Assembly: GCA_035583355.1 (NCBI GenBank) | Contig: DATEZQ010000003.1 | Coordinates: forward strand, 193,844-257,843 | Direction: 5' to 3' | Origin: Minisyncoccota bacterium | GTDB taxonomy: Bacteria; Patescibacteriota; Minisyncoccia; Phycocordibacterales; UBA6899 | DNA: 64,000 nt | Part shown: positions 3,189 to 59,086 of the stretch, piece after piece | Numbering within the stretch: the stretch's first letter is position 1 | Layout of the letters: the number at the start of each line of letters is the position of its first letter | Program-made: the position numbers and the translations under genes | Notes under the pieces: model-generated | Database searches by the model: none | What the model saw: only the letters and a program-made list of their open reading frames with translations | Told to the model about the DNA's origin: nothing

Positions 3189-5336
3189 ATGGATCAATCG
3201 TATCCGCTCGAGAAAACTCGAAACTTCGGAATCATTGCGCACATCGACGCAGGCAAGACGACAACGTCAGAGCGTGTGCTCTTTTATACTGGTGAGTCTC
3301 ACAAGATTGGTGAGGTGCACGAGGGAGCAACGGTCATGGACTGGATGGAGCAGGAGCGTGAGCGCGGTATTACGATTACCTCTGCTGCGACCACTGCGTT
3401 TTGGACTCCAACCTACGCAGACAAGAAGGATGCTGAGAAGAAGTTCCGCTTCAATCTCATCGACACTCCTGGACACATCGACTTCACCATCGAGGTGAAG
3501 CGTTCTCTTCGCGTCTTGGACGGTGCAGTTGTCGTCTTCGACGGCGTTGCTGGTGTCGAGCCACAGTCAGAGACCAACTGGCGTTATGCTGACGATGGAA
3601 AGGTGCCACGTATCTGTTTCATCAACAAACTCGATCGTATGGGTGCATCATTTGAGCGTTCATACCAGAGTATCTTGAATCGCCTCACGAAGAATGCAGT
3701 GCGCATGCAGATTCCTGTTGGCGAGGAGGAGAATGTTTCTGGTGTCATCGATCTCTTTGAGCGCGTTTACTACACGTTCGAGGGAAACATGGGAAATACA
3801 CTCGTGAAGCACGAAGTTCCTGCAGAGTACAAGGATGATGTCGAGAAGTACCGTGGTGAGCTCATTGAGGCAGTTGTTGCCCAGGATGAGGCACTCATGG
3901 AGAAGTATCTCGAGGGTGTTGAGCCAACGATGGAGGAGTTCAAGAGGGTGATGCGTAAGGCAGTTATCGCGAACAAGATTATCCCAGTGTACACTGGTAC
4001 TGCTCTCAAGAATAAGGGTGTACAGCTCGTGCTCGACGCAGTCGTCGATTTCCTTCCAAGCCCACTTGATATCCCACCTACAAAGGGTATTGATCCAAAC
4101 ACTGATCAGGACATCACTCGTCTTGCATCGAACGATGAGCCATTCGCCGCACTCGCATTCAAGGTTGCTGCAGATCCATTCGTGGGTCAGCTCACCTTCT
4201 TCCGTGTGTACTCAGGAAAGCTTGAGGCAGGTTCATACGTCTACAATGCAACGAAGGGAAAGAAAGAGCGTATCAGTCGTATCGTGCGTATGCATGCAAA
4301 CGACCGTGAGGAAGTGAAGACTGTGTACGCGGGAGAGATCGCAGCTGCGGTCGGTCTCAAGGACACCTTCACCTCAGATACACTTTGTGATGAGGATAAG
4401 CCAATCATCCTTGAGCGTATCGTTATCCCTGAGCCAGTCATCTCGATGCGTATCGAGCCAAAGACAAAGGCAGATCAGGAGAAGATGGGTGTTGCGCTCT
4501 CACGCCTTGTTGCGGAAGATCCTACATTCCGTGTTACTACCGATGAGGAGACAGGTGAGACAATCATCTGGGGAATGGGAGAGCTTCACCTCGACATCAT
4601 CGTCGATCGTATGAAGCGTGAGTTCAACGTGGAGTGTACAACCGGCAAGCCACAGGTGGCATTCCGTGAGACCATTCAGGGTTCTGCTGAGCAGAATGAG
4701 AAGTACTTGAAGCAGTCAGGTGGTAAGGGACAGTACGGTCACGTAGTGATCCGTATCAAGCCTATGGAGCCACTCGCAGAGGGTGCAACCGTTCCAAAGA
4801 ACGTCACACGCGAAGCAGACTTCGAGTTCATCAACAACATTAAGGGCGGTGCAATTCCTCAGGAATTCATCCCCGCAATTCTTAAGGGTGTGCGCGAGGG
4901 TCTCGATCGCGGTGTCGTCGCAGGTTTCCGCCTCGTCAACGTTTCAATCGAGCTCTTCGATGGTTCATACCATGATGTCGACTCATCAGAAATCGCCTTC
5001 AAGATTGCTGCATCGATGGCTGTTCGCGAGGCTGCTCGCAAGTCACGTCCAGTGATCCTTGAGCCAATGATGTCAGTGGAAGCAATCTTCCCTGATGAGT
5101 TCATGGGTGATGTTTCGGGTAACCTTTCATCACGTCGTGGACAGATTAGCTCAATGGGTGAGCGAGGTATGAACAAGGTGCTTACTGCACTCGTTCCACT
5201 TTCAGAAATGTTTGGATACGCAACAACATTGCGCTCAATGACACAGGGTCGTGGTACGTTCACCATGACATTCCAGGAGTATGCTCCGGTGCCTGCCAAC
5301 ATCGAAAAGGATATTGTTGCATCACGCGCAAAGTAA
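3189..5336 (+). CDS. fusA: translation elongation factor G
   Basis: [35 protein letters not shown]... G-domain motifs [14 protein letters not shown] and NKLD. Start moved to the ATG at 3189 (the ORF track begins at 3084). Confidence 0.95.
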
Positions 5337-5406
5337 GAACGCCCCTTCGGGGACCAGGCGTTCTTGCCCGTAGATGTCTCGCCTCCGCGAGCCATATCAA
5401 CTCAAG
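5335..5406 (+). repeat. conserved ~70 nt two-hairpin module (copy 1; copy 2 at 58496-58567)
   Basis: aagaacgccccttcggggaccaggcgttcttgcccgtagatgtctcgcctccgcgagccatatcaactca matches 58496-58567 apart from a few substitutions, one of them compensatory within a hairpin. Confidence 0.7.
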
Positions 5407-5465
5407 CAAAAACCACCATCAATGCATGGTGGTTTTTGCTCTTTCGGGTAAATCTTCATATTTTG

Positions 5466-5550
5466 GCGACCTTGCCCTCACGCTTCGGCATGCGACTCGC
5501 TCACCGTACTCCATGTACGGCTCGCTAGAGTTCGCACGCCTCCAGCGAGG
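5466..5550 (+). repeat. intergenic repeat family copy A (downstream of fusA)
   Basis: Shares cctcacgcttcg, a GTAC-core palindrome, ctcgctagagttcgcacgcctcc and tccagcgagg with the copies at 15575-15637, 19043-19265 and 45462-45545. Confidence 0.65.
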
Positions 5551-5816
5551 GCAATCTCATCCCAAATCTGAAATTTATCGTTCAAATAAAAACGCCCCTC
5601 GGCGTTTTTATTTTTCAAGATTTGCTGAAGCGCTATGACCTTGCTATTTTATTGTACTCGATAAAATGGAAAGGGGCCGGGAAAACAGCAGTTTTCCCGT
5701 GGAGGAAGGCAGTGAGTCTTCGAGCGCCCTGAACCGTGGGTTTCCGAGGAGCAATATTCCTCGCGGTTTCATTGTTTGTTATAAGTAAAAACGCCCCACG
5801 GCGTTTTTGGGGAGGT

Positions 5817-6338
5817 CTAGCGGCCAGAAAAATCTTGGGTATAGATTGCGCACTTGTAAGCGCCAGGGCTACTGATGACGGTGGGGTCTGCGAAGTCTCC
5901 GTTTGGGAGACAGAGCGACATGGTGTCGGACAAATATCCCGTTTGTAGTTTATACCCCGCACCATTTGAAGCATAGTGATAGCCTTCCGTTACGCCTACT
6001 CCCGCACAGCCACTGGGGTCGATTGGCAGTATGGGGATGAATTCGGGTGCAAGGTCGGGGATGAACCCATTGCTTCCCGAGCGGTCGAGTCCCCAAGGGC
6101 CATCACCGGGATTTTTGCAAACACTAAGCCACATATTGGATGTGTTTGGGTAGGTATTGTATTTGTCTTTGTAGAGTTCGAGTGCCGTGTTGAGCTGCTT
6201 GAAGTCGCTGTAGCGTCTTGCGACACGCGCTTTCATGCGTGCACTGCTCAGTGCAGCCAGGATGACACTCGAAAGAAGTCCGATAATCGCAATCACAACC
6301 AAGAGTTCAATGAGAGTGAATCCTTTTTGATGTTTCAT
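5817..6338 (-). CDS. type IV pilin-like protein (prepilin-type N-terminal cleavage/methylation domain)
   Basis: MKHQKG|FTLIELLVVIAIIGLLSSVILAALS class III signal with conserved E5. Start taken at the M preceding the pilin leader. Confidence 0.8.
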   Translation of the reverse strand: MKHQKGFTLIELLVVIAIIGLLSSVILAALSSARMKARVARRYSDFKQLNTALELYKDKYNTYPNTSNMWLSVCKNPGDGPWGLDRSGSNGFIPDLAPEFIPILPIDPSGCAGVGVTEGYHYASNGAGYKLQTGYLSDTMSLCLPNGDFADPTVISSPGAYKCAIYTQDFSGR

Positions 6339-6448
6339 CAACGTATTATAGGTCAAAAACATATTTGAAGATACGGACAATTTCGTAAGTTTAATTGCTT
6401 ATACTCCTCAGTAGTTCGAATGTTGTTGAGTGTGAGTAGGGAGTCAAT

Positions 6449-6949
6449 CTAGAGGAGAAGCTTGCCGAGGCGGCCGTCGAAGACATTTGTACCTTGGCCG
6501 TCACGTGCGGTGACTTGGGAGGCGGGGAGAAGGTTGATGTAGGCTCTCCTTGGGTTGGTGCGGGCGAAGTAGATGTCGACGAACTGATATGAGCCAAAGC
6601 TCAGTCCTTTGGTGGTGCCTCGCACGATGTTAATGACACCTCGTTCTTGTTGGTTCGGTACAGCCATCTGAAAGTCAGAGTTCGCTGCATCGAAGTGATC
6701 TATTTTGAGTGCATCACTGTCGTAGGCGAGGACAAGCTCGGCGGCATTGATTACTGCATCTTCTGTTGAGATTGATATGCGCACATGCGTCAGCATGATG
6801 TCTCCGGTGTCATCAAGTTGCTGCATGTCGATGCTTGCATAATCTCGCGCCGCAAGTGCAAGGGATGGAAGAGCACCGCTGAATATTGCCATGAATACAA
6901 AACTCACGAAAAGACGTTGTACGCGAATACGTGAATGGAGGTGTAGCAT
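6449..6949 (-). CDS. hypothetical secreted protein
   Basis: N-terminal signal-like segment LFVSFVFMAIFSGALPSLALAA. Start chosen at the internal M. Co-directional with the upstream pilin gene. Confidence 0.45.
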   Translation of the reverse strand: MLHLHSRIRVQRLFVSFVFMAIFSGALPSLALAARDYASIDMQQLDDTGDIMLTHVRISISTEDAVINAAELVLAYDSDALKIDHFDAANSDFQMAVPNQQERGVINIVRGTTKGLSFGSYQFVDIYFARTNPRRAYINLLPASQVTARDGQGTNVFDGRLGKLLL

Positions 6950-7282
6950 AATTCGAATGAAGTATGAATTGTATAAAGAAAAACCATCGCTTAGGATGAG
7001 TCGAGAGATGTAGCACGTGTATGCGTGATACAAGGGTGACCGGTTACGCCAGTAGCTCCGCACGGTTCAGGCGTCCAAATAAGAACCGCGTTTCATTGCT
7101 TCCACCTAAGTATGTATAGTGAATTATGGTTTGCATTTTAAGTCAAGCATTTTATACTTGACTAATATAATTGTAAGTGTCATATGGGTTGTCCTAGGGC
7201 AGGTGCACAAATTCGATATTGTTCTCGTTGCATTTCTGTTTGGTTGTTGTAGTGTAACTTCAGAAAAGTATATGGAGATTCT

Positions 7283-14357: not shown

Positions 14358-15551
14358 ATGGCAGCAGAAGCATTTGATCGTTCAAAGCCACACGTTAACG
14401 TGGGCACCATCGGTCACGTCGACCACGGCAAGACCACTCTTACCGCAGCGATCCTCCACGTGCTCCACATGGCAGGTTGTGAGGTGAAGATGAAGGGAGT
14501 TAACGAAATCGACTCAGCACCAGAGGAGAAGGAGCGCGGTATTACTATCGCCCTCTCACACAATGAGTATTCTACAAAGACCCGCCACTACGCACACATC
14601 GACGCACCGGGCCACGCAGACTACATCAAGAACATGATCACCGGAGCAGCACAAATGGACGGTGCAATCATCGTCGTTGCAGCAACCGATGGTCCTATGC
14701 CACAGACACGTGAGCACATCCTTCTTGCAAAGCAGGTCGGCGTACCTCGCATCATCGTCTTCTTGAACAAGGTAGACATGGTTGATGACGCTGATCTCGT
14801 TGACCTCGTTGAGGAGGAGATCCGTGATCTTCTCGAGAAGCAGGGCTTCGATCGCAATTGTCCAGTTATCCGTGGTTCAGGTCTCAAGGGACTCGAGGCT
14901 ACATCAGTTGATGACGAGTGGGCAAAGAAGATTCTTGAGCTCACTGATGCTCTCGATACCTACATCCCAGTTCCACAGCGTGATACAGCAAAGCCATTCC
15001 TTATGCCAGTTGAGGACATCTTCTCAATTGAAGGTCGTGGTACGGTTGTGACCGGAAAGATCGAGCGCGGTATCATCAAGGTTGGACAGGACATTGAGAT
15101 CGTTGGTCTCAAGGATACTGTAAAGACAACAGTGACTGGTATTGAAATGTTCAACAAGTCACTCCAGGAGGGTATGGCCGGCGACAATGCAGGTATTCTC
15201 ATCCGCGGTATCAAGAAGGAGGACGTTACTCGTGGTCAGGTGCTTGCAGCACTCGGCTCAGTAACTCCACACTCAGAGTTCGAGGCAGAGGTGTATATCC
15301 TCAGCAAGGACGAGGGTGGACGCCACACACCATTCTTCTCAGGCTACAAGCCACAGTTCTACATCCGTACAACGGACGTGACTGGTGAGGTTACACTCAA
15401 GGAGGGTGTTGAGATGGTTATGCCAGGCGATACTGTTACCTTCAAGGTAAAGTTGATCGCTCCAGTTGCACTCGAGGACCAGACACGTTTCGCTATCCGC
15501 GAGGGTGGTCGTACAGTCGGTGCTGGTGTCGTAACAAAGATCGTTAAGTAA
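14358..15551 (+). CDS. tuf: translation elongation factor Tu
   Basis: [32 protein letters not shown]...DAPGHADY...NKVD... full length, 397 aa. Confidence 0.97.
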
Positions 15552-15574
15552 TAAACAAGTCTTTTTGCTCAATC

Positions 15575-15637
15575 TTGCAGTGGTTCGCCGCGCGACTCGC
15601 TCGATGTACTCAATGTACATCTCGCTAGAGTTCGCAC
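15575..15637 (+). repeat. intergenic repeat family copy D (downstream of tuf)
   Basis: gcgactcgctcgatgtactcaatgtacatctcgctagagttcgcacggctcc. Shares gcgactcgctc, the GTAC-core palindrome and ctcgctagagttcgcacg.ctcc with copy A. Confidence 0.6.
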
Positions 15638-15829
15638 GGCTCCACCACCGCAACCTTGAACAAAAATCTCTTGTTTATGAAAAACGATAAATGTTCGTAA
15701 TCGTTCCCGTAATGGTGTGACGATTCGTCCCATCATTATTAGAACAAAATCCTACGTTTACTGAAATATATGACAACTGCGGAACACACAACGAAGAAGG
15801 CAGCTGCGAAAAAGGTAGAAGGAGGAGGC

Positions 15830-18943: not shown

Positions 18944-19042
18944 TTTTATTTCCACAAAACAAAAAGCGCCTTCGGGCGTTTTTTGTTTTGCGGAAATAAA
19001 ATTACTTTTTCTTTACGTTCACCTGCTGGGTGACGGCCGCAT

Positions 19043-19265
19043 CTTTTTGCTTGGATCGGCCTCACGCTTCGCCCACGACTCATGTCAATATTTTGTTCGC
19101 AAGGCTCCAAAATATTGTATGGTCTCGGGCCCGCCTCGCCGTCTCGAGGACTCGACATGGCTCCGGCTTACTCGCGGGAAAATGTTTCACATTTTCGATT
19201 CCCGCTCGTACTCCCTGCACCACTTTACACTATCGGACTCCAGCGAGGCCGCTGCAAGCAAAAAT
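19043..19265 (+). repeat. intergenic repeat family copy C (long form, downstream of rplB)
   Basis: Starts ctttttgcttgg..cggcctcacgcttcgccc and ends ggactccagcgaggccgctgcaagcaaaaat. Same termini as the short copy at 45462-45545, with about 130 nt of extra internal sequence. Confidence 0.65.
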
Positions 19266-19444
19266 CTGAGCGGGTACATTTTCTTGTATTTTACAGATTA
19301 AATATTAGTGCTACTCTATTATTACAAGCGGGGTAAATGCCAGCCTAACGAGGTGCTCGCGGAAATTTCAATTTGCTGCTTATTCGAATCACTAAAAATA
19401 ATCGCAATGAACATTTTTACAAAGATCGGCACGGAGGTCATCAT

Positions 19445-45423: not shown

Positions 45424-45461
45424 AGTATTCCTTCCGTGTACCAAATATCCGCACTGGTCTT

Positions 45462-45545
45462 TTTGTCTGGGGCGACCTCACGCTTCGCCCTCCATGTACC
45501 ACTGTACATTATCGGGCTCCAGCGAGGCCGCCGCAGACAAAAATA
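45462..45545 (+). repeat. intergenic repeat family copy B (short form, downstream of secY)
   Basis: ctttttgtctggggcgacctcacgcttcgccc...gtaccactgtac...gggctccagcgaggccgccgcagacaaaaat. Its termini match the long copy at 19043-19265. Confidence 0.65.
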
Positions 45546-45663
45546 CTCAGTGTTTCATGGTTGTTTATGTGTGAATAGTATTTCTACATAGTTCATTTGT
45601 TTCAGCAACAATCCCTCATTAGAATCTTAAGCATAGAAAAACCACCCCAAGGGGTGGTTTGTG

Positions 45664-55149: not shown

Positions 55150-58132
<2,983 letters not shown>

Positions 58133-58265
58133 AGTCATGCGGACGAACTATGTTCTGAAACACGCAACATTTTCGACACGATTTAATCGTGATAGTTGCT
58201 CAATGATTACACCTTTTGTTAAAGATTCAGTTTTCAAAGCTTCACAGTACATTGTTTGTATTGAT

Positions 58266-58377
58266 AGAGGTGGCTCGACGTTGTGGACCCACCCGGTCTC
58301 ATTCCGAACCCGGAAGTGAAACATGATAGTGCCAATGATACTCTTCAGAAGAGGGGAAAGTAGGTAGCTGCCTCGAT
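58266..58377 (+). rRNA. rrf: 5S ribosomal RNA
   Basis: gtggacccacccggtctcattccgaacccggaagtgaaac matches the 5S loop B/helix III consensus. Terminal helix gaggtggc/gctgcctc. Confidence 0.85.
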
Positions 58378-58495
58378 CAATGTAAACAATGAATGAAGAA
58401 ACACTCGAAAGAGTGTTTTTTCTTATATGTTAAATTCTTAATGCAAGGTCTCCGCCTTTTGCAGAGGCTTGAATTTGTCAGAAGAGGGGAAATAA

Positions 58496-58567
58496 AAGAA
58501 CGCCCCTTCGGGGACCAGGGCGTTCTTGCCCGATAGTGTCGCGCCTCCGCGCGTCAGATCAACTCAC
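58496..58567 (+). repeat. conserved ~70 nt two-hairpin module (copy 2, downstream of 5S)
   Basis: Near-identical to 5335-5406. Second hairpin cgcgc-ctcc-gcgcg here versus ctcgc-ctcc-gcgag in copy 1. Confidence 0.7.
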
Positions 58568-58577
58568 GCCTCAGCTA

Positions 58578-58700
58578 CGCTGAGTCGCTCACGGGTAGGT
58601 ACGCTGCAAATGCGCAATCCACTGATTGCGTCGCACTCGCTCTAGCAGGTAAGCCAATGATACCGAGATGCGCTGAGTCGCTCACGGGTAGGTACGCTGC
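58578..58700 (+). repeat. 30 nt direct repeat x2 (cgctgagtcgctcacgggtaggtacgctgc) with 63 nt spacer
   Basis: Exact copies at 58578-58607 and 58671-58700. Related to the gactcgctcac motif of the repeat family. Confidence 0.6.
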
Positions 58701-58819
58701 CTCAATACACAGAGTTGCTCATTGTTAAATGTGCACATATTTAAATATTTAAATGCGCATTTAAGGATGTTTAGGGCGAACGTGCTAAACGTCTTTTTGG
58801 TGAAAGAGCGAGGCAGGGA

Positions 58820-58850
58820 TTGACTTTTTGGCACTTTCAATTAATATTAT
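58820..58850 (+). promoter_or_regulatory. putative promoter of tRNA-like RNA #2
   Basis: TTGACT, 17 nt spacer, AATATT (or 19 nt spacer, TATTAT), 20-25 nt upstream of GGGGCTG. Confidence 0.35.
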
Positions 58851-58869
58851 AGGGCTTTGTTCTTTCCAT

Positions 58870-59048
58870 GGGGCTGCCTTTCGGGGCGTGTATGAGTGAC
58901 TACTCCTCTGGTACGCGAAGTTTGCGTATCTCGTCGTGGGCTTACCGCCTGCCAGCTCCTCCAATTTCTTTGCTCTTTGGGGCCGTCGTGCGAGCGTCTG
59001 TTCCCTGGGGAATGGAAGGCGAAGGTTCAACTCCTTCCGGCTCCGCCA
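58870..59048 (+). ncRNA. tRNA-like/tmRNA-like structured RNA candidate #2 (GGGGCUG...CCA)
   Basis: 5' GGGGCTG pairs 7/7 with 3' CGGCTCC, including a G3:U70 wobble. T-arm GAAGG-TTCAACT-CCTTC. Discriminator G, encoded CCA. Terminator at 59061-59086. An alternative 5' strand GGGGCCG lies at 58979. Two reading frames across the element are stop-free and the third has only an early TGA, so no tag ORF is evident. Confidence 0.4.
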
Positions 59049-59060
59049 AAGAGATCTCTA

Positions 59061-59086
59061 AGCCCCACGTGATGGGGTTTTTCTTT
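59061..59086 (+). terminator. rho-independent terminator after RNA candidate #2
   Basis: cccca-cgtga-tgggg followed by TTTTTCTTT. Confidence 0.55.

Follow-up and report, generated by a model that had tools for sequence, protein, structure and literature searches.

A small TA-flanked repeat with a conserved fold, probably mobile, behind fusA and 5S rRNA genes in a Paceibacterota lineage

Small bacterial repeats that terminate in TA, such as Correia/NEMIS, RUP and ERIC, have been reviewed together, and the stable stem-loops of their transcripts are capable of influencing termination or the stability of mRNA (PMC2229807). The CIR repeats of Caulobacter and Brucella (Chen and Shapiro 2003, tabulated in PMC2229807) have no terminal inverted repeats and end in 5'TA3', and their 5' and 3' sections each form stem-loops independently of the other. 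IS607 also inserts without inverted repeats, and an identical dinucleotide is found at its ends and at its target (PMC6188088). The element described here shares several of these features. It is present twice in a 64,000-nucleotide stretch of DNA from a Minisyncoccota bacterium (GenBank assembly GCA_035583355.1, contig DATEZQ010000003.1, forward-strand positions 193,844 to 257,843), referred to below as the window: once at the end of fusA (copy 1, 5336-5450) and once behind the 5S rRNA gene (copy 2, 58497-58597). Each copy is very probably a mobile insertion unit. Taken as a whole, the element is probably a small non-autonomous, non-coding mobile DNA repeat found in a narrow clade within Candidatus Paceibacterota, of the candidate phyla radiation, moved in trans, with hairpins that the element itself needs, any effect in 3' untranslated regions (UTRs) being secondary and the fusA copy acting as a terminator. 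The L10 protein of the genome is 100% identical to an NCBI entry under the name Candidatus Paceibacterota. The family of repeats is apparently undescribed: a literature search gave no description, and Rfam gives no family at E-values up to 10 over both element loci and only noise there when the whole window is scanned at gathering score.

Insertion of a fixed unit at TA

Alignment of six full copies defines a repeated unit with fixed ends, AGAACGCC...CGGGTA. Besides the two copies in the window, four true copies are present in public collections on Paceibacterota-related contigs: two (units A and B) in L011, the metagenome-assembled genome "bacterium SKS1.bin43"; one in L026, a groundwater contig whose L10 and EF-G proteins are 90% and 98% identical to those of the window; and one in L024, an unrelated metagenome contig of 1.4 kb. 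The unit is 101 nt long in four of the six copies, 106 nt in one and 115 nt in the fusA copy, the element proper being 99-113 bp plus TA. Its G+C content is 52-68%, compared with 49% for the window, and the copies (101-115 bp) contain no open reading frame (ORF) except a spurious frame of 43 amino acids in L024. The features at the fusA site are as follows.

3189..5336, + strand: fusA, encoding EF-G of 715 amino acids (translation; Pfam EF-G domains on an identical protein)
5334-5336, + strand: fusA TAA stop codon, formed by the target TA and the first A of the insertion (sequence at 5330-5340)
5336..5450, + strand: element copy 1, inserted as 115 bp that read AGAACGCC...CGGG followed by the duplicated TA (filled versus empty sites; covariance model)
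5334-5335 and 5449-5450, + strand: target TA and duplicated TA of copy 1 (filled versus empty sites)

The decisive evidence for insertion is that a close relative has the site empty. Downstream of fusA the sequence of the window is GCAAAGTA, then the unit AGAACGCC...CGGGTA, then AATCTTCATATTTTGGCGA, whereas L031/L032, whose EF-G is 98% identical, read GCAAAGTAAATTTTG, with no element and an unrelated terminator of their own. In L037 (EF-G 87% identical) the corresponding sequence is AGATAAATCACATATTTTGGCGA, again without the element, and the bases right after its TA match the downstream flank of the window at 16 of 19 positions. Since the filled and empty sites match precisely at TA, and L037 continues as the window does, the fusA copy is shown by these comparisons to be a precise gain of 115 bp (113 bp plus a second TA), a presence/absence difference between close relatives. 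The element is likewise absent after fusA in L033/L034, L036 and L035 (EF-G 90%, 86% and 81% identical). The initial annotation had taken the repeat to be a module conserved after fusA; it is missing there in every relative examined (L031-L037), and a conserved fusA 3' UTR element is ruled out by the five empty orthologous sites. The first base of the insertion restores the TAA stop codon of fusA. Two short-read assemblies with an identical EF-G stop 24 nt inside the element, where the sequence of copy 1 parts from that of copy 2, as is expected of a repeat.

Some features around fusA stand apart from the element. The gene lies about 9 kb from tuf (14358-15551), with unrelated genes between them, a layout also found in L031 and L033; most bacteria have fusA next to rpsL/rpsG, which is not the case here. 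Between fusA and convergent pilin genes are two near-identical bidirectional terminator-like hairpins (AAATAAAAACGCCCCTCGGCGTTTTT) at 5584-5609 and 5783-5808, 200 nt apart. The pilin-like genes (6449-7063 and 5817-6380, minus strand) are directly preceded by a c-di-GMP-II riboswitch (RF01786, 64.6 bits) at 7029-7112 on the minus strand of this candidate-phyla-radiation genome.

The second site of the window lies in a stretch of decayed 5S pseudogenes, for which the element serves as a marker.

58266..58376, + strand: genuine 5S rRNA (Rfam RF00001, 63.5 bits)
58395..58422, + strand: intrinsic-terminator-like hairpin closing the 23S-5S operon, upstream of copy 2 (12 pairs, T-run)
58478..58607, + strand: decayed 5S pseudogene fragment split by copy 2 (k-mer collinearity)
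58497..58597, + strand: element copy 2, 101 bp with the 3' TA counted (covariance model, copy alignment)
58651..58712, + strand: second 5S-like remnant, AGCCAATGATAC ... GGTACGCTGCCTCAATAC (repeat family D12, motif and k-mer matches)

On the left of copy 2, positions 58478-58492 of the pseudogene are identical to 58345-58359 of the 5S gene (TCAGAAGAGGGGAAA), and on the right 58598-58607 (GGTACGCTGC) corresponds to GGTAGCTGC in 5S. At the same site L011 reads aaagTA, element, ggtacgctgcctcgatcaatg, the 5S counterpart being aaagTAggtagctgcctcgatcaatg. Its unit A has 5S sequence ...TCAGAAGGGG..AAAGTA, the element and GGTACGCTGCCTCGATCAATG, the two flanks being genuine 5S sequence, AAAGTAGGTAGCTGCC, interrupted at TA; in unit B, with 5S sequence CCGGAAGTGAAACATGATA, the element and (A)GCCGATGATAC ... 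GCTGCCTCGATCAATG, the interruption is at another TA. All 5S pieces are outside the unit, and with the element taken out they are collinear with real 5S, whose uninterrupted sequence serves as a paralogous empty site. In the window and in L026 the orthologue of unit A is accompanied by the second remnant, where a piece from the 3' part of the element, truncated at its 5' end (about 58670-58690, GCGCTGAGTCGCTCACGGGTA), occupies the same TA site; the window therefore contains two full copies and one fragment in 64 kb. The decayed fragments behind 5S (window 58431-58760, L011 766-1480, L026 8561-8900) keep their arrangement in the three related genomes, and in L011 the pseudogene units are in tandem, with a 5S terminator copy behind every one.

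The 23S and 5S rRNA genes occupy 55161-58376. The 64 kb of the window contain no 16S gene, which suggests a split rRNA operon. Further downstream are two tRNA-like sequences ending in CCA (58870-58963 and 58979-59048), which are conserved in relatives (L026 9040-9210, L011 1500-1570) and are preceded by a promoter-like site (58820-58847) and followed by a terminator (59060-59080). Neither is recognized as a tRNA by ARAGORN, and the Rfam tRNA model gives 25.8 bits for the second against a threshold of 29.

The L024 site, GGGATA[...]AGAAAAA, has the same element ends with TA on both sides. No alignable empty site was found for this copy, the homologues of the neighbouring protein being 57-66% identical and the flanks unalignable. 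In all, four independent sites each have TA directly to the left, while the right end of the element is itself TA; the chance of TA at all four left flanks is about (1/16)^4 under uniform base composition. A two-base TA duplication fits all four sites. A three-base TAA duplication fits three sites and fails at the 5S site (aaagTAggta), which makes TA the simpler reading.

The likeness of the two window copies, reported initially as about 90% identity, is real: 5335-5406 and 58496-58567 agree at 65 of 74 alignment columns (88%), with three single-base indels, and for a 35-mer of copy 1 zero chance matches are expected in shuffles. A covariance model built without copy 1 recovers it at full length (81.8 bits, E about 1e-17, match 5333-5455), and copy 2 scores 130.2 bits. 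The 72-nt interval first described is a genuine repeat, covering the first 71 nt of copy 1, and is only the left part, roughly two-thirds, of a 101-115 bp unit that runs on to CGGGTA at 5450 and 58597. Searches for further copies used an exact 19-mer in a genome collection (one true locus, 10 chance matches), a 20-base gapped pattern in a metagenome collection (one true match, 11 chance matches) and a viral collection (no element match); covariance-model searches of about 267 kb of related loci added no copy.

Fold, covariation and strand

The consensus fold of the six copies consists of four helices, P1 to P4, located in the window copies as follows.

5335..5365, + strand: copy 1 P1 (hairpin 1), AAGAACGCC/GGCGTTCTT, 5335-5343 with 5357-5365; cUUCGg tip and a 3'-side internal loop GGACCA
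5365..5370, + strand: copy 1 P2, 5' strand TGCCCG, pairing with the CGGGTA that ends the element on the right (5445-5450)
5378..5391, + strand: copy 1 P3 (hairpin 2), CTCGC-CTCC-GCGAG (sequence, folding)
5405..5444, + strand: copy 1 P4, 15-bp hairpin AGCAAAAACCACCAT/ATGGTGGTTTTTGCT followed by CTTT (folding; copy comparison)
58496-58505 with 58518-58527, + strand: copy 2 P1 (inverted-repeat search)
58527-58532 with 58592-58597, + strand: copy 2 P2 (consensus fold)
58540-58553, + strand: copy 2 P3, CGCGC-CTCC-GCGCG (consensus fold)
58567-58575 with 58579-58587, + strand: copy 2 P4 (consensus fold)

P2, in which TGCCCG just after P1 pairs with the terminal CGGGTA, encloses P3 and the variable P4. 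Its sequence, which includes one G-U pair, is invariant in all six copies, and because it closes the rest of the unit it places the two ends of the element side by side. P1 and P4 are unrelated in sequence and the left and right parts of the element are unlike, ACGCC being the sole motif common to both and too short to count. An inverted-repeat search on three copies with their flanks finds no terminal inverted repeats; it gives local hairpins only, none of which joins the ends.

Both hairpins of the initial annotation are present in both window copies, as is the compensatory change in hairpin 2, where T-to-G in the 5' arm is paired with A-to-C in the 3' arm (U-A to G-C). Collecting the copies and examining covariation, as had been proposed, extends this observation. 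In the six copies three of the five P3 pairs are changed on both sides (7 cells), with pair states C-G/G-C, U-A/G-C/C-G and C-G/G-C, and none of 500 shuffles reaches the observed covariation. Non-compensatory changes, which had been named as evidence to the contrary, are absent from hairpin 2: 100% of its cells are paired in the six copies. The nine outer pairs of P1 are invariant, an observation that carries little weight because part of P1 is fixed by the search patterns used to find the copies. The tip of P1 has been rebuilt in one copy, from CC-UUCG-GG to GCCG-AGGA-CGGC. P3 and the P1 tip are kept paired by double changes, and the repeat is not a decaying neutral duplicate, as had been argued from two copies. 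P4 is variable: three copies have CUCAGC-NNN-GCUGAG, two (L011 unit A and L024) have no P4, and the fusA copy has a terminator-like hairpin of 15 bp with a U-run.

The stretch around hairpin 2 (window 5371-5397, L026 8662-8688) is the fastest-changing part between the orthologous copies of the window and L026. It has about eight differences in 25 nt with the stem always paired, while the 5S genes are identical at 107 of 111 positions (96%). The same GCGGC/GCCGC stem occurs in L026 and in unit B of L011, which suggests exchange between copies.

Several sequence features hint that the + strand is favoured as the bearer of the structure, either as RNA or as the top strand of DNA. The P1 hairpin is capped by a cUUCGg tetraloop in five of six copies, the invariant G-U pair of P2 would be an A-C mismatch on the other strand, and the folding z-scores of the module are -2.7 and -2.5 on the + strand and -1.0 and -1.25 on the other. 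Every copy with a known upstream gene lies in the sense direction, and such copies would thus be co-transcribed with that gene. In copy 1 the 15-bp stem of P4 (5405-5440) is directly followed by TTTTTGCTCTTT and has the form of a rho-independent terminator, which the P4 helices of the other copies do not; it is the first terminator-like site after fusA. From this hairpin and its U-run, the copy is predicted to act now as the terminator and 3' stabilizer of fusA, a role that would be a secondary, host-level effect.

What the structure is kept for

The structural argument made from the two window copies holds, but it does not tell for whom the structure is kept. If the unit were an RNA module that acts in cis, selected for termination, 3' processing or protection from exonucleases at the 3' ends of highly expressed transcripts, and conserved at fusA and the rRNA operon, then hairpins kept by double changes, the tetraloop and G-U pair, a + strand that folds somewhat better, the sense orientation behind fusA and rRNA genes and the terminator-like hairpin of copy 1 would all be expected. 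This reading is nevertheless unlikely, because the element is absent after fusA in five relatives, one of which has a 98% identical EF-G and its own unrelated terminator, the L024 copy is in a different context and the terminator-like P4 is specific to copy 1. The initial annotation also placed both copies at the ends of highly transcribed RNAs, a tie that is not supported. The stop codon of fusA is indeed where copy 1 begins; copy 2 begins 121 nt past the 3' end of 5S, beyond a strong terminator and within a 5S pseudogene, so that it does not lie at the end of mature 5S and can hardly be called a module conserved after 5S. A free-standing gene family for a structured small RNA (sRNA) of about 100 nt, with copies spread by recombination, would account for the length fixed at 101 nt, the conserved multi-helix fold and, in L024, a weak hairpin with a U-run after the unit and a TATAAT box about 30 nt ahead of it. 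It is very unlikely, since no promoter-like site lies directly upstream of copy 1 or copy 2, copy 1 begins inside a stop codon, there is no Rfam relative, and the TA flanks and the interruption of 5S are signatures of insertion and not of gene duplication.

The stretches identical to 5S that flank the copies after the 5S gene might suggest instead that the repeat is a 5S fragment or a divergent paralogue, hairpin 2 corresponding to helix IV/loop D. The pattern GCCCGAUAGUGU-stem-CUCC-stem resembles the helix IV region of E. coli 5S, a likeness that is a lead and not a test. This origin is largely refuted and highly improbable: the Rfam 5S model (RF00001) has no match at E-values up to 10 in 58377-58860 or 5300-5660, the 5S pieces are outside the unit, and the copies at fusA and in L024 have no 5S flanks. 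That only two copies are present in the window would be in keeping with a one-off neutral segmental duplication or chance similarity, an equally improbable explanation, which is refuted by the additional copies: there are six with identical boundaries in four contexts, the chance expectation is zero and all changes in P3 are compensated. Group I intron boundaries, with a 5' exon ending in U and an intron ending in G, were also considered, and no assignment of the two-nucleotide ambiguity satisfies both.

The preferred reading, a mobile repeat moved in trans, has points against it as well. The apparent copy number is low: about 267 kb of DNA from the clade yielded six full copies, and each collection scan one further true locus. 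Because the copies of the window, L026 and L011 unit A are orthologous, the six represent about four independent insertion events. Among the 20 ORFs of at least 180 amino acids that were scanned, of the 54 listed for the window, there is no transposase domain or autonomous partner and no serine transposase gene. The absence of terminal inverted repeats means that the usual mechanism of MITEs (transposable elements of the miniature inverted-repeat kind) does not obviously apply. Finally, paired double changes in a short palindrome can arise without selection, by template switching in the hairpin during replication. A second and unrelated repeat family in the window suggests that small mobile repeats are active in this lineage, since it has clear terminal inverted repeats of about 25 nt (TTTTTGCTTGG.CGGCCTCACGCTTCGCC ... 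GGCTCCAGCGAGGCCGC.GCAAGCAAAAA). It is 90-230 bp long and resembles classical MITEs, with copies at 5460-5565, 15560-15665, 19040-19272 and 45455-45548 and also after fusA in L036 and L037; one copy is just after tuf and another adjoins copy 1 of the element.

If the element is moved in trans, an enzyme encoded elsewhere would join DNA across the TA, and the conserved fold would be a requirement of the mobilizing machinery or of the persistence of the element in transcripts. Strand exchange over an identical dinucleotide, in the manner of IS607-type serine transposases, is a tentative suggestion by analogy; a two-base staggered cut with fill-in, as for MITEs mobilized by IS630, is a somewhat more doubtful analogy, and strand exchange fits better because there are no inverted repeats. 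A mode of moving DNA that has not been described may also be imagined, and is quite unlikely: the conserved four-helix fold would bring the ends together and serve as substrate or cofactor of a TA-specific recombinase, such as a serine transposase or some other enzyme that acts on a folded single strand, with the fast-evolving, always-paired hairpin 2 as a determinant of specificity or compatibility. A bridge RNA of the IS110-like kind was rejected, the four target sites sharing only TA with no sign of guide-specified targets; for the same reason IS200/IS605-like and bridge-RNA-like readings do not fit.

As it stands, the element is an ordinary kind of object. Its interest lies partly in being a worked example, in that a compensatory change between two repeats does not alone indicate a host regulatory RNA. 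Such repeats also break assemblies, and one of them has landed on the stop codon of an essential gene, rebuilt the stop and appears to have supplied a terminator. The mobilizing enzyme could be informative, since the element duplicates TA and yet has no terminal inverted repeats.

Relation to known elements

Several features are shared with Correia/NEMIS, RUP and ERIC: the element is non-coding and in the 100-150 bp range, has TA on either side through duplication of the target, occupies sites that are filled in one genome and empty in a close relative, and lies mostly between genes, often just 3' of them (PMC2229807). Those repeats are A+T-rich with terminal inverted repeats of 7-24 bp, whereas this element has no such repeats and a G+C content above that of its surroundings (PMC2229807). 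Its copy number also seems far below theirs. It has the small size, the lack of coding capacity and the target duplication of a strict MITE, the last seen at filled and empty sites (L031, L037, 5S at two TAs, L024), and it differs from one in having no terminal inverted repeats in three copies with their flanks.

Palindromic elements derived from IS200/IS605 (REP, PATE) resemble it in lacking inverted terminal repeats, in forming hairpins as single strands and in having stems upheld by compensating changes. They differ in having similar hairpins near both ends and a fixed target of 4-5 nt, while the two halves of the present element are dissimilar, P4 is missing in two copies and the targets have only TA in common; similar subterminal hairpins at both ends are not found. 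IS607 is an autonomous element of 1.6-2.5 kb with tnpA, and we know of no miniature derivatives of this form. The ends of the present element have two features of the IS607 type: they lack inverted repeats, and element end and target show the same dinucleotide, giving TA...TA at four independent sites. Ends of this type also contain short direct-repeat binding motifs, for which the ACGCC common to both halves here is too short to count. As in IS607, there is little target specificity beyond the dinucleotide, which is GG in IS607 and TA here (PMC6188088).

In general architecture the element agrees with CIR, by description and not by sequence (PMC2229807). Like members of that class, the element is non-coding and shorter than 200 bp, has TA termini and no terminal inverted repeats, and folds separately in its 5' and 3' sections. 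CIR differs in its methylation-site motif, its host phylum and its fold. The element is therefore filed as a new family of small non-autonomous mobile repeats, distinct from MITEs in the strict sense.

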